Shown: positions 1,530 to 62,116, counted from the first letter of the stretch. The stretch is 64,000 bases of DNA from Escherichia coli (GCF_030384885.1 NZ_CP128613.1); one strand, 5' to 3'. The notes: generated by a model not told the origin, from the letters alone. Numbers and translations: made by a program.

Positions 1530-1702
1530 CAAGTTCTTTTGCGTTGCATTGCTGGCGTAAATGTCAGCAATGCAGCATTTCCTCACGATTCTTCTTTGAC
1601 GATCGCACTTTTTGCTCGTTATGATGGCGTCGCTAGCCTCAGTAAATCCTTACTCCGGCGGTGCGCAACCTGTGCGCGTGAACCACTATCTGAATGCTCA
1701 TC

Positions 1703-2637: not shown

Positions 2638-2820
2638 GTAGGCAGGATAAGGCGTTTACGCCGCATCAGGCATTCGGAGCACGATGCCTGATGCGATGCT
2701 TGCGCATCTTATCAGGCCTACAAACGTGACGCGTCCGTAGGCAGGATAAGGCGTTCACGCCGCATCCGGCATTCGGTGCACGATGCCTGATGCGATGCTT
2801 CTATTTGCATCAGGCATCCA
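2638..2820. repeat. REP/BIME cluster (at least two REP units) between convergent pbpG and dld
   Basis: Duplicated ggcaggataaggcgtt(t/c)acgccgcatc(a/c)ggcattcgg...gatgcctgatgcgatgctt units. Confidence 0.85.
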
Positions 2821-9266: not shown

Positions 9267-10185
9267 ATTTAGCCATGTCAGCAAACTGTTCGGCACACAA
9301 AAAGCCGTTAACGATCTCAACCTCAATTTTCAGGAAGGGAGTTTCTCGGTGCTGATTGGTACATCAGGCTCCGGTAAATCCACCACATTGAAAATGATCA
9401 ACCGTCTGGTAGAGCATGACAGCGGAGTGATCCGCTTTGCCGGAGAAGAAATTCGCTCGCTGCCAGTGCTGGAGTTACGCCGCCGGATGGGCTATGCCAT
9501 TCAATCTATTGGCCTGTTTCCCCACTGGAGCGTGGCGCAAAACATTGCTACTGTGCCGCAATTACAAAAATGGTCGCGGGCGCGGATCGACGACCGTATC
9601 GACGAATTAATGGCGCTACTGGGGCTGGAGCCAAATTTGCGTGAGCGTTATCCGCATCAGCTTTCCGGTGGTCAGCAGCAACGTGTGGGAGTGGCCCGCG
9701 CGTTGGCTGCCGATCCGCAAGTCTTACTGATGGATGAACCTTTTGGCGCACTGGACCCGGTAACGCGTGGTGCGTTGCAACAAGAGATGACGCGTATTCA
9801 CCGTTTGTTAGGGCGCACCATTGTGCTGGTCACTCATGATATTGATGAGGCGCTACGGTTGGCAGAACATCTGGTATTGATGGATCACGGTGAAGTGGTG
9901 CAGCAGGGCAATCCTCTGGCGATGCTGACTCGTCCGGCGAATGATTTCGTCCGCCAGTTTTTTGGCCGTAGTGAACTGGGGGTCCGCCTGCTTTCGTTAC
10001 GTAGCGTGGCGGATTATGTGCGCCGCGAAGAACGGGCAGAAGGTGAGGCACTGGCAGAAGAGATGACGCTACGCGATGCGCTCTCCCTGTTTGTCGCGCG
10101 GGGATGCGAAGTGCTGCCGGTGGTAAACACGCAGGGCCAGCCTTGCGGCACGCTGCATTTTCAGGATCTGCTGGTGGAGGCGTAA
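9259..10185 (+). CDS. yehX: Osmoprotectant ABC transporter ATP-binding protein
   Basis: Walker [13 protein letters not shown] signature LSGGQQQR, Walker B LLMDEP. Confidence 0.93.
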
Positions 10186-20982: not shown

Positions 20983-22071
20983 TCACGGCAGGCGGTGGCG
21001 AGCTTGATAATAAGCCTGCCAGTGAGCTTCTTTATGTGTAGCGACACGCTGTTCGAAGTAACGGCGCAGACGTGCGCGATCTTCTTCGTTATCTTTGACG
21101 ATGGTTCCGGCAATACAGTCTACCAGGTCGGCAGGCTCCCCAGCGCGATTCGCTAAAAACCAGGCGCGGAAACCCACGGCGTGTGCTACGTTAACGGCTT
21201 CAGCGGTGGACATAATCGCTGTAAGGGTATCCATTGAGGTTTTCTTTTCGCCGTTGGCACGCAGATCGCGGAAGGTGCGGACCAGTAACTCCAGTACCGC
21301 GTCAGGCACTTTATGCGGAATACCGCTATGGGCCAGCAAACGTGCCGAAGCGCTGGCGACAAGCTCCAGCTCCTGGGCGAAATCCATAATCGGAAAGACA
21401 GTTTCAAAATCGAAGCGACGCTTGAGTGCGGCACTCATTTCATTGACGCCGCGATCGCGGGTATTGGCAGTAGCAATAATATTAAAGCCTTCCCGCGCAT
21501 AGAGCTGACTGGCTTCACCAGTGAGTTCCGGCACCGTCATAACCCTGTCAGAAAGCATACCTAACAGACAGTCTTGTACTTCCAGTGGTGTACGCGTTAT
21601 CTCTTCAAAACGGACAATTTTGCCGTCGCGCATTCCCTGGTAGAGCGGGGCAGGGACCAGCGCTTCCGTTGACGGACCATGGTTGATAAGCAGGGCGTAG
21701 TTCCAGCCGTACTTGATTTGATCTTCGGTGGTAGATGCGCCGCCCTGGATGGTTAACCCGGCATCGCCGCTAATAGCGGTTGCCAGTAATTCAGACAGGA
21801 GCGATTTTGCGGTGCCAGGTTCCCCCACCAACATCAAACCGCGCCCGGTAGCGAGAGTGACTAACATGCGTTCGACAGCGGAGGGGCTAATCACGACTTT
21901 ACGGCTAATATTTTGTGCTTCGTCGCCAAGGATAAAAACACGGGCCGCAGGCAAACTTAACTGCCAACCGGGCGGGCAAGGTGCGTGATCATTTTGTTTT
22001 AATTTTGCCAGTTCATCGGCGTATAACACAGCGGCAGGCGGACGCTGCAGATGATTATTCTGCGGTGACAT
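20983..22071 (-). CDS. yehL: MoxR-type AAA+ ATPase YehL
   Basis: 362 aa beginning MSPQNNHLQRPPAAV; Walker A GEPGTAKS; CbbQ/NorQ-like. Confidence 0.9.
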   Translation of the reverse strand: MSPQNNHLQRPPAAVLYADELAKLKQNDHAPCPPGWQLSLPAARVFILGDEAQNISRKVVISPSAVERMLVTLATGRGLMLVGEPGTAKSLLSELLATAISGDAGLTIQGGASTTEDQIKYGWNYALLINHGPSTEALVPAPLYQGMRDGKIVRFEEITRTPLEVQDCLLGMLSDRVMTVPELTGEASQLYAREGFNIIATANTRDRGVNEMSAALKRRFDFETVFPIMDFAQELELVASASARLLAHSGIPHKVPDAVLELLVRTFRDLRANGEKKTSMDTLTAIMSTAEAVNVAHAVGFRAWFLANRAGEPADLVDCIAGTIVKDNEEDRARLRRYFEQRVATHKEAHWQAYYQARHRLP

Positions 22072-22182
22072 ATATTCATCCCTGAAATGTATTAATGAAA
22101 TAAACGATATTTTACGCGCAATAAATGTTTGGCGCATTAGTTGTTTGAGCGGAAAATATCTGGAAAGCAGATCACAGTAAAT

Positions 22183-22265
22183 AAAAAAACCTGCTGGTGA
22201 GGCAGGTTCTTTTATTTACTACTTTCAGGCCTAACACCACGGCCTGTGCAACATCGTGTTCCAAC
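22183..22265 (-). ncRNA. orzO: OrzO-like type I antitoxin sRNA (boundaries estimated)
   Basis: Minus-strand -35 TTGCAA (22295-22300), 17-nt spacer, -10 TATAAT (rc of 22272-22277); intrinsic terminator at 22182-22214; 5' ~20 nt (rc of 22246-22265) complementary to toxin 5'UTR 22412-22431 with one mismatch. Confidence 0.6.
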
Positions 22266-22271
22266 GAACGA

Positions 22272-22322
22272 ATTATAACCATCGGTGGACCCCGTTGCAA
22301 TTAAGATAATGAGATTTATAAT
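22272..22322. promoter_or_regulatory. Divergent overlapping sigma70 promoters for the antitoxin sRNA (-) and the toxin mRNA (+)
   Basis: Palindromic TTGCAA serves as -35 on both strands; + strand -10 TATAAT at 22317-22322 places the TSS near 22330. Confidence 0.55.
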
Positions 22323-22503
22323 CCTGACTGTTGGGACGTTGCGCCGGATCGAACCCATTTCAAGTCCTGGCTACCGGACGGGTGGTGCCGCAGGTAGTGC
22401 CCTGATCCGGAGTGCAACATCGTGGTCCAACATACGTAAACCAGTATCGACAGGCAGTGTAAGGGTAAGATGCTGGTGTTGCGCTCCTTAATAAGGAGAG
22501 CGG

Positions 22504-22593
22504 ATGGACACGCTGACACAAAAGTTAACCGTGCTCATTGCCGTACTGGAGTTATTAGTGGCTCTGTTACGGCTGATTGATTTGTTGAAGTAA
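22504..22593 (+). CDS. zorO: Type I toxin, ZorO-like 29-aa hydrophobic peptide
   Basis: ATG at 22504 preceded by SD AAGGAG; translates to MDTLTQKLTVLIAVLELLVALLRLIDLLK; ~174-nt 5'UTR; recognised from memory as ZorO/ZorP family (which paralog is uncertain). Confidence 0.75.
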   Translation: MDTLTQKLTVLIAVLELLVALLRLIDLLK

Positions 22594-22616
22594 CGGGCAA
22601 ATTGAAACGCATCTAA

Positions 22617-22641
22617 GGGGGAAAATACCGCTTCCCCCTTT
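22617..22641 (+). terminator. Hairpin terminator downstream of the toxin ORF
   Basis: gggggaa-aataccgc-ttccccc stem-loop followed by a U-rich tract. Confidence 0.5.
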
Positions 22642-22759
22642 AATAAAATGATTATTGCTTCCATTAATTCACCCGATAACTTTTTTCTTATTTATTAATT
22701 CATCGATTTTATAATTAACGTACATTTGACCGGGATGTGAGTATTTATGGTGGCTATTG

Positions 22760-22972
22760 GCGAAAAATATCTGGAAACCAGATCGCGGAAAATAAAAAAA
22801 CCTGCTGGTGAGGCAGGTTCTTTTATTTACTACTTTGACGATAACTTGCTGATTGTGCAACATTTCGTACCAACGAGTAAATTATAACCATATCCACACT
22901 CCATTGCAATTCAGTGAGTGAGATTTATAATCCTGCCCCTTGGGAGGTTGTGCCGGATCGGACCAATTTGAA
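22760..22972. repeat. Copy 2 of the repeat; truncated toxin-antitoxin unit with no toxin ORF
   Basis: Homology to copy 1 ends about 15 nt before the yehK stop codon; terminator and both promoters conserved. Confidence 0.85.
22793..22876 (-). ncRNA. Second Orz-like sRNA gene (OrzP-like), apparently orphan
   Basis: Minus-strand -10 (rc of attata 22882-22887) and -35 ttgcaa 22904-22909; terminator at 22793-22825; 5' pairing region diverged (gtgcaacatttcgtaccaac). Confidence 0.5.
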
Positions 22973-22986
22973 TTATTTAGAGTATA

Positions 22987-23304
22987 TTATTCTATTTCTT
23001 GGTTGAATATGTTCTGTAGTTCACGATTAAAAATGGCTATTACCGTTTCTGGTGATTCACCTCGTAATTTTCGCTCATCAATAAATTCATCTCTTATATA
23101 AATCAACGCATCATTTATTAGCGGGTCGGCATCTTCTCCATCACGTTGATGAAATGTTGGACGTAGCCGGAATCGTTCCTGTCGATAGACGGAACCTGTA
23201 AATAATTCAGAGCATTTATGGATCTCAAGTCTGAAGGAAAACGGATCTTCAGGTACAGGGACTTCATAATCATAAGTAGCGACCAGCTCTTTTTGCACGA
23301 TCAT
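22987..23304 (-). CDS. yehK: Uncharacterised protein YehK (105 aa)
   Basis: 105-aa ORF 60 nt downstream of yehI on the same strand. Confidence 0.8.
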   Translation of the reverse strand: MIVQKELVATYDYEVPVPEDPFSFRLEIHKCSELFTGSVYRQERFRLRPTFHQRDGEDADPLINDALIYIRDEFIDERKLRGESPETVIAIFNRELQNIFNQEIE

Positions 23305-45574: not shown

Positions 45575-45667
45575 TTTCACAACGTTATTGTAATCCCGCC
45601 GTTTTTCCTCGTTTACAACGTGTGCGCGGGACATTACCATCCATCTCTGCGATTCATCATCGCAACC

Positions 45668-45790
45668 AAACGACTCGGGGTGCCCTTCTGCGTGAAGGCT
45701 GAGAAATACCCGTATCACCTGATCTGGATAATGCCAGCGTAGGGAAGTCACAGACCACCAGGTCATTGCTTCTTCACGTTATGGCAGGAG
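45668..45790 (+). ncRNA. TPP (thi-box) riboswitch in the thiM leader
   Basis: cgactcggggtgcccttctgcgtgaaggctgagaaatacccgtatcacctgatctggataatgccagcgtagggaagtc matches the thiM TPP aptamer; expression platform runs to the SD of thiM. Confidence 0.9.
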
Positions 45791-61945: not shown

Positions 61946-62032
61946 AAAAAATAAGCCCGTGTAAGGGAGATTACACAGGCTAAGGAGGTGGTTCCTGGTA
62001 CAGCTAGCATTTTATGGGTTATGTTTTTCAGC
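61946..62032 (-). ncRNA. cyaR: CyaR (RyeE) Hfq-dependent sRNA
   Basis: Minus strand reads GCTGAAAAACATAACCCATAAAATGCTAGCTGTACCAGGAACCACCTCCTTAGCCTGTGTAATCTCCCTTACACGGGCTTATTTTTT, matching CyaR including its terminator, as recalled. Confidence 0.9.
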
Positions 62033-62116
62033 GAAACGGATGATAACCTTAATAAATGCAGCTGTATGTGATCGGTTTCTAAGAATTTTCCATCCGGGAA
62101 AAATAATCGAAATTAA

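Follow-up and report, generated by a model that had tools for sequence, protein, structure and literature searches.

The 915-bp spacer between yehL and yehK in this Escherichia coli chromosome (GCF_030384885.1, NZ_CP128613.1) is almost certainly a chromosomal zor-orz type I toxin-antitoxin locus, and it carries the rare "1.5-copy" allele. We examined it within a 64,000-nucleotide stretch of one strand (referred to here as the window, with positions counted from its first letter), and what we found in the spacer corresponds to the class that Shore et al. (PMC11264685) described under that name, i.e., a full zor/orz pair plus an extra orz lacking both a cognate zor ORF and a pairing site. As this is the same type I system that has been the work of the Fozo laboratory (PMC3919570, PMC5397157, PMC9860968, PMC11264685), the locus was already known, its rare copy-number class included; the system, its mechanism, the copy-number classes and the orphan antitoxin of K-12 have all been published, and there is little here that is biologically new. 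The present analysis cleanly assigns one unit to the P and the other to the O specificity type, gives evidence that the rare 1.5-copy allele has the deletion junction of the common antitoxin-only allele, and predicts that the resident toxin is beyond the control of the orphan OrzO. The strain thereby offers a naturally occurring setting in which to ask whether orphan antitoxins of type I systems have other roles.

A sequence-only reading of the window had proposed a Zor/Orz-family type I module with a divergent sRNA and a long toxin leader, lying between yehK and yehLMPQ. The location agrees with the RefSeq annotation of strain 2013C-4282 and with O157:H7 Z1835, and the family assignment was borne out by peptide identity, an Rfam OrzO-P match, synteny with O157:H7, and the literature (PMC3919570, PMC5397157). 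Strain 2013C-4282 differs from the window at only 1 of 3,901 nt (G/A at 23045, inside yehK), and strain 2020CK-00188 is 99.8% identical to it over a 411-nt query. The same genes flank the locus in O157:H7, where a spacer of 1,240 bp (915 bp in the window) accommodates two complete units. In the window, both orz copies belong to a tandem duplication of ~610 bp, with a start-to-start spacing of 609–611 bp. An exact-sequence look-up of the 29-residue peptide MDTLTQKLTVLIAVLELLVALLRLIDLLK, for which database comparison with Zor toxins had been suggested, returned an exact match to the UniProt/UniRef entry ZORO_ECO57 ("Small toxic protein ZorO", E. coli O157:H7). ZorP is a T3S variant of this peptide, and the window peptide carries T3; each charged residue that Bogati et al. 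examined (PMC9860968), namely D2, K7, E16, R23, D26, and K29, is present. Against the Rfam model RF02083 (OrzO-P, gathering score 60), the sRNA of the intact pair scored 98.9 bits (22183-22258) and the second, orphan sRNA scored 90.6 bits (22794-22867).

A scan of the 29-residue peptide against NCBIfam found no family model, and neither a zor ORF nor an orz sRNA was annotated in the nine RefSeq records that we inspected, MG1655 (NC_000913.3) included. Family placement rests for this reason on exact identity, Rfam, and the literature, and since the genes are absent from the annotation of all nine records, scanning raw sequence can evidently recover real genes that annotation omits. Other ORFs in the spacer, among them ones of 46 residues (22747-22887) and 64 residues (22669-22863), were set aside as mechanical calls that overlap an sRNA gene or terminator and are otherwise unsupported. 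Features of the locus are collected in Table 1.

Table 1. Features of the yehL-yehK spacer and its flanking genes (window coordinates; arrows give the direction of transcription)
Feature	Position	Strand	Basis or remarks
yehL	20983-22071	-	RefSeq annotation of strain 2013C-4282
Intrinsic terminator of the sRNA	22176-22220	-	Inverted repeat 22176-22194/22202-22220, 19-nt arms, 95% complementary, then U-run
orz sRNA of the intact pair, 83 nt	22183-22265 (22265->22183)	-	OrzP specificity type, V1 = ACG at sRNA nt 9-11
sRNA 5' recognition segment	22246-22265	-	GUUGGAACACGAUGUUGCAC; plus-strand letters GTGCAACATCGTGTTCCAAC
orz promoter, TTGCAA-17-TATAAT	22272-22300 (22300->22272)	-	Sigma-70-like, 10/12 consensus positions (promoter scan)
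zor promoter, TTGCAA-16-TATAAT	22295-22322	+	Sigma-70-like, 10/12 consensus positions (promoter scan)
zor 5' UTR, 174 nt	22330-22503	+	Start placed from published coordinates
Segment lost by processing in the published model, first 28 nt	22330-22357	+	Start placed as for the 5' UTR
EAP/putative ribosome-standby region (+73 to +102)	22402-22431	+	Coordinates from PMC5397157
Conserved GGAGTG in the EAP	22409-22414	+	GGAGTG/AG motif from PMC11264685
sRNA target in the EAP (+83 to +102)	22412-22431	+	GTGCAACATCGTGGTCCAAC
Shine-Dalgarno AAGGAG	22493-22498	+	Lies in a predicted sequestering hairpin, CTCCTT-AAT-AAGGAG (full-length mRNA fold); published RBS, +164 to +169
Toxin ORF, 29 aa	22504-22593	+	Encodes MDTLTQKLTVLIAVLELLVALLRLIDLLK; ORF list
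Predicted zor mRNA terminator hairpin	22615-22641	+	AAGGGGGAA...TTCCCCCTT, then TTAATAAAA; 3' end of the predicted fold
Second, orphan orz sRNA, 81 nt	22794-22874 (22874->22794)	-	OrzO type, V1 = GAA
Orphan-unit zor promoter	22904-22931	+	10/12 consensus (promoter scan)
Orphan-unit orz promoter	22909->22881	-	10/12 consensus (promoter scan)
Stub of the deleted toxin 5' UTR, ~31 nt	22939-22969	+	Ends at the deletion junction ...GGACCAATTT/GAATTATTTAGAGTATA; alignment with O157
yehK	22987-23304	-	RefSeq annotation of strain 2013C-4282

The organization of the intact pair was much as had been read from the sequence. The 29-codon ORF does have a strong Shine-Dalgarno element (AAGGAG, 5 nt before the ATG), and the sRNA gene of ~83 nt on the minus strand is divergent from the toxin gene and does not overlap it. 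The 5' end of the sRNA had been noted as complementary to the toxin leader with one mismatch, and we found that the two 20-mers in question (GTGCAACATCGTGTTCCAAC and GTGCAACATCGTGGTCCAAC) indeed differ at a single position, so that an RNA transcribed from the minus strand with its 5' end at 22265 would be complementary to the plus-strand leader at 19 of 20 nt. These 20-mers were the sole matches at ≤3 mismatches anywhere in the 64-kb window, where shuffled sequence is expected to give 0.02. The predicted energy of this cognate duplex was −40.3 kcal/mol. Pairing is reported to suffice when it extends over 15 nt continuously, or over 17 nt discontinuously with one mismatch (PMC11264685), and 19 of 20 nt is above the latter rule; the target at +83 to +102 also falls within the EAP (+73 to +102), where the family has 18–19 nt of complementarity between the sRNA and the 5' UTR.

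The divergent promoters of the intact pair have one common palindromic −35 hexamer, TTGCAA (22295-22300), and the same −35 and −10 (TATAAT) elements have been reported as >99% conserved (PMC11264685). With one −35 for two promoters, transcription of the toxin and the antitoxin may compete for a single polymerase-binding site. The arrangement recurs in the orphan unit (22904-22909): in both units the −35 is its own reverse complement and serves both promoters, with spacers of 16 and 17 nt.

We called the orz and zor terminators from Rfam structure and from folding rather than from a consensus scan, which reported the orz hairpins on the plus strand only. The minus-strand orz terminators were likely missed because a stem extended into the A/T runs absorbs the T tail, and the zor terminator was missed because its tail has few T residues. 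That said, the orz terminator is supported both by a terminator-like site in the scan and by the terminator helix of the Rfam model, and its hairpin is symmetric, flanked by a run of A at one end and a run of T at the other, giving it the form of a terminator on both strands. The minus strand carries both orz genes as well as yehK and yehL, with the orz terminators in the spacer separating the latter two; it is plausible that the orz terminator insulates yehL from read-through, as the sequence-only reading had suggested. The same hairpins drew Rfam matches to Thr/Trp leaders, STnc370, ohsC, RsaOG, and BTnc005, which we rejected as terminator look-alikes (16–30 bits, all below gathering).

The toxin mRNA would also follow the published layout, a 174-nt leader with the RBS at +164 to +169 and the EAP region at +73 to +102 (PMC5397157). 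When +1 is set at 22330 the published RBS falls exactly on AAGGAG and the EAP ends exactly at 22431. In the predicted fold of the full-length mRNA, nt 1–22 pair with +74 to +102, and the Shine-Dalgarno lies inside the CTCCTT/AAGGAG hairpin. A predicted fold of the mRNA lacking its first 28 nt, in which the Shine-Dalgarno was freed, was not used, as it contradicts published probing in which the RBS is still structured (PMC5397157). We also saw that the 5' end of the toxin mRNA (22330-22351, GUUGGGACGUUGCGCC...) resembles the 5' end of the antitoxin (22246-22265, GUUGGAACACGAUGUUGCAC). As the mRNA 5' end is predicted to pair with the same +74 to +102 segment, it would act as a built-in antitoxin mimic until processed off.

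Our own results bear on how closely the sequences match, on family membership, on sRNA-leader pairing, on synteny, and on how frequent the allele is; the account of toxicity, mRNA processing, ribosome standby, and dependence on RNase III comes from the literature on EDL933, mostly on zorO-orzO, and is extended to the P-type pair by homology. Expression of zor-orz in this strain is suggested by its sequence. On this basis, a constitutive-looking promoter would give a toxin mRNA with a 174-nt leader, and the full-length RNA would be poorly translated because its first ~28 nt pair with the EAP (+73 to +102) and the Shine-Dalgarno lies in a hairpin. In the published account both the RBS and the EAP are sequestered in the full-length leader, and the EAP, once open, promotes translation, probably by serving as a ribosome standby site (PMC5397157); loss of the first 28 nt would open the EAP, provide the standby site, and allow the toxin to be made. 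The toxin would be a 29-residue inner-membrane peptide that, when overproduced, depolarizes the membrane, depletes ATP, and stops growth; ZorO is known to insert in the inner membrane, where its overproduction depolarizes the membrane and depletes ATP (PMC9860968). The antitoxin would repress by blocking standby loading and by RNase III-dependent decay of the mRNA. For zorO-orzO of EDL933, growth is inhibited when the toxin is overexpressed and restored by the cognate sRNA, a rescue that depends on RNase III (PMC3919570).

Since the peptide is ZorO, the intact pair might have been taken for zorO-orzO proper, and a match to ZorO/OrzO was what the sequence-only reading had proposed. This holds at the level of the family and of the peptide, but the paralogue is of the zorP-orzP type. 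The target of an Orz sRNA is decided by three nucleotides (V1), with OrzO carrying GAA and OrzP, which is unable to repress zorO, carrying ACG (Wen et al., PMC3919570). The sRNA of the intact pair reads GUUGGAAC-ACG-AUGUUGCAC, with V1 = ACG and A6 forming the OrzP signature, and its leader target GTGCAACATCGTGGTCCAAC is that of the ZorP-encoding O157 copy and not GAGCAACGTTTCGTACCAAC. A V1 of GAA was present only in the orphan sRNA, whose matching target has been deleted. The intact unit is yehL-proximal, as is O157 zorP-orzP, and its identity over the whole unit is 96.5% with the P unit of O157 as against 88.5% with the O unit. The case for zorO-orzO proper comes down to the residue at position 3 (T3, as in ZorO, rather than the S3 of ZorP), together with ZorO being the commonest peptide, which makes up 72.5% of zor ORFs across all locus types (PMC11264685). 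Against these, T3/S3 is a single polymorphism, and the single-copy locus of ABU 83972 has the same combination of a P-type sRNA with T3. We therefore regard the intact pair as orthologous to zorP-orzP of EDL933 (z3290 with the sRNA divergent from it) and as encoding the commoner ZorO variant of the peptide; that it is zorO-orzO proper is unlikely. Compared with the EDL933 zorP-orzP pair it has the same site, recognition sequence, V1, and 20-nt target, and differs by the T3 residue and by a few scattered substitutions. Compared with zorO-orzO of EDL933 (z3289; Wen et al. 2014, 2017; Bogati et al. 2022), it has an identical toxin peptide and a common architecture (divergent sRNA, predicted 174-nt leader, EAP/putative standby region, and RBS predicted to be sequestered); unlike there, the intact toxin is under a P-type sRNA and target. 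As a check on these assignments, the MG1655 orz was identical to O157 copy 1, in line with the published 100% identity of OrzPmg to EDL933 OrzP (PMC11264685), and the sRNA of the intact pair grouped with both.

A possible variation on this pairing was seen in strain VCSW5, one of the other genomes with a 1.5-copy structure. The usual 20-mer recognition and target sequences, searched for by pattern in unit 1 of VCSW5 (spacer positions of about 175 and 341), were not found, and the toxin ORF is intact. The VCSW5 pair may be of another specificity type, the published Q type being one possibility.

The orphan orz gene lies outside the interval covered by the sequence-only reading, which ended at 22641. 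Its unit was 97.1% identical to the yehK-proximal, ZorO-encoding unit of O157 (zorO-orzO) and 77.8% identical to the other unit, and we take it to be what would remain of zorO-orzO after a 325-bp deletion took the leader past its first ~31 nt, the toxin ORF, and the terminator. As the spacer is shorter than that of O157 by this same 325 bp, the pairing site, toxin ORF, and terminator of the orphan unit are gone; orzO, the two promoters, and ~31 nt of leader are left. The junction, GGACCAATTT/GAATTATTTAGAGTATA, falls just before the yehK stop codon. The orphaned zor promoter is intact and points into the 3' end of yehK, a geometry also found in MG1655. With the terminator lost in the deletion, this promoter faces yehK directly and could give antisense transcripts.

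Judged from its sequence, the orphan OrzO-type sRNA is probably made in this strain, as its promoter and terminator are intact and its Rfam score is strong. These features, and the 15 of 20 positions that it has in common with what would pair with the resident target, would allow it to serve as a second antitoxin, giving two antitoxin genes for one toxin gene. The predicted pairing points the other way. The longest continuous run between the orphan sRNA and the resident leader is 9 nt, and the five mismatches take in all of V1, which leaves the pairing short of both sufficiency rules given above and makes the orphan unlikely to act on the resident toxin. Duplex energies agreed: the O157 cognate controls gave −39.0 and −32.9 kcal/mol, O157 OrzP with zorO, a combination found experimentally to be non-repressing (PMC3919570), gave −29.5 kcal/mol, and the orphan OrzO-type sRNA with the resident P-type leader gave −26.2 kcal/mol, weaker than that non-repressing combination. 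A role as second antitoxin thus appears quite unlikely, and the preferred reading is that the orphan sRNA should not repress the resident toxin, with no cross-talk between the units predicted.

The 1.5-copy class was reported in 6 of 2,212 assemblies (Shore et al., PMC11264685). When we searched for the structure as a single uninterrupted match among complete RefSeq genomes, we likewise found it in six, here out of 5,426: 2013C-4282, 2020CK-00188, VCSW5, HCP5S3_I2, LCP30S3_I5, and AST215, among which divergence reaches about 5%. Neither this strain nor VCSW5 was found by name or accession in the mSystems supplement. The junction itself is far more common. A 61-nt query across it was covered to at least 80% in 1,844 of the 5,426 genomes (34%), in agreement with the published proportion of strains with orz only, about 30% (PMC11264685).

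The sequence-only reading had described the module as inserted between yehK and yehL and as absent from K-12. The direction implied by the former was wrong. Sequence of the spacer region was matched in 5,234 of the 5,426 complete genomes, and the K-12 state is a deletion. A genome with no match, that of strain P470, was considered as a possible empty ancestral site and rejected: in it an IS1B (1744-2441 of the extracted locus) replaces yehL, yehM, yehP, yehQ, and the zor-orz spacer, with yehK abutting IS1 and followed by yehR, indicating an IS1-associated secondary loss of yehLMPQ and the spacer. Given the 5,234 matching genomes and the secondary loss in the no-match genome that we examined, the locus is ancestral to the species and not an insertion. 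As for K-12, the zor toxin is absent as claimed, but MG1655 keeps an orz identical to O157 orzP, published as OrzPmg, an expressed and experimentally detected sRNA (PMC11264685). Its 306-bp yehK-yehL spacer (9291-9596 of the extracted locus) has one P-type orz, both promoters, and a leader stub running to the same junction (GGACCAATTT/GAATTATTTAGAGTATA, beside yehK), without zor. K-12 is thus derived by deletion, with an expressed antitoxin retained and with the deletion junction of the window, from which it differs in having one P-type orz and no toxin, where the window has an intact pair and an O-type orphan.

The K-12 stub suggests how the toxin might have been lost. It is P-like up to TGCGCCGGATCG and O-like after (GACCAATTT), as judged from two or three informative sites only; a stub that is P-like at its 5' side and O-like at the junction fits a path of two steps. 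In the first, a single 325-bp deletion would have removed zorO from a two-copy locus, creating the junction now found in 1,844 of the 5,426 genomes. In the second, unequal crossover between the two orz/promoter repeats would have removed zorP and orzO, leaving a K-12-type orzP. The allele in the window, a P-type pair with an O-type orphan, could then be a surviving intermediate in the loss of toxin by about a third of E. coli, K-12 included, which we offer tentatively and would not rate as an even chance. The zor-orz papers (PMC3919570, PMC5397157, PMC9860968, PMC11264685) do not discuss the order of toxin-loss events. If this path is true, the orphan Orz sRNAs and the orphaned zor promoter facing yehK would have been kept for a function unrelated to the toxin.

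That the intact pair is itself a decaying relic that no longer produces toxin is very improbable, because even though the adjoining unit is already without its toxin and about a third of E. coli genomes have no zor at all (PMC11264685 and our junction count), so that selection for the toxin is evidently weak, the promoters, Shine-Dalgarno, ORF, EAP motif GGAGTG, pairing site, and terminators are all intact and match the functional EDL933 sequences.

Among other type I systems, tisB-istR1 and shoB-ohsC resemble zor-orz in that the sRNA gene is divergent from the toxin gene without overlapping it, the sRNA pairs with a long leader at a site well upstream of the RBS, and 5' processing opens a standby site (PMC5397157). 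Their toxin and sRNA sequences are unrelated to those of zor-orz; the ohsC model did give a weak, sub-threshold Rfam match to the orphan orz (28.5 bits). LexA is not known to control zor.

Elsewhere in the window, Rfam matches above gathering were to CyaR sRNA (61949-62034, minus strand), a TPP riboswitch (45666-45762, plus strand), naRNA4 (2641-2718, plus strand), and the Peptidase-S11 RNA motif (1618-1698, plus strand), all of which are usual in E. coli.
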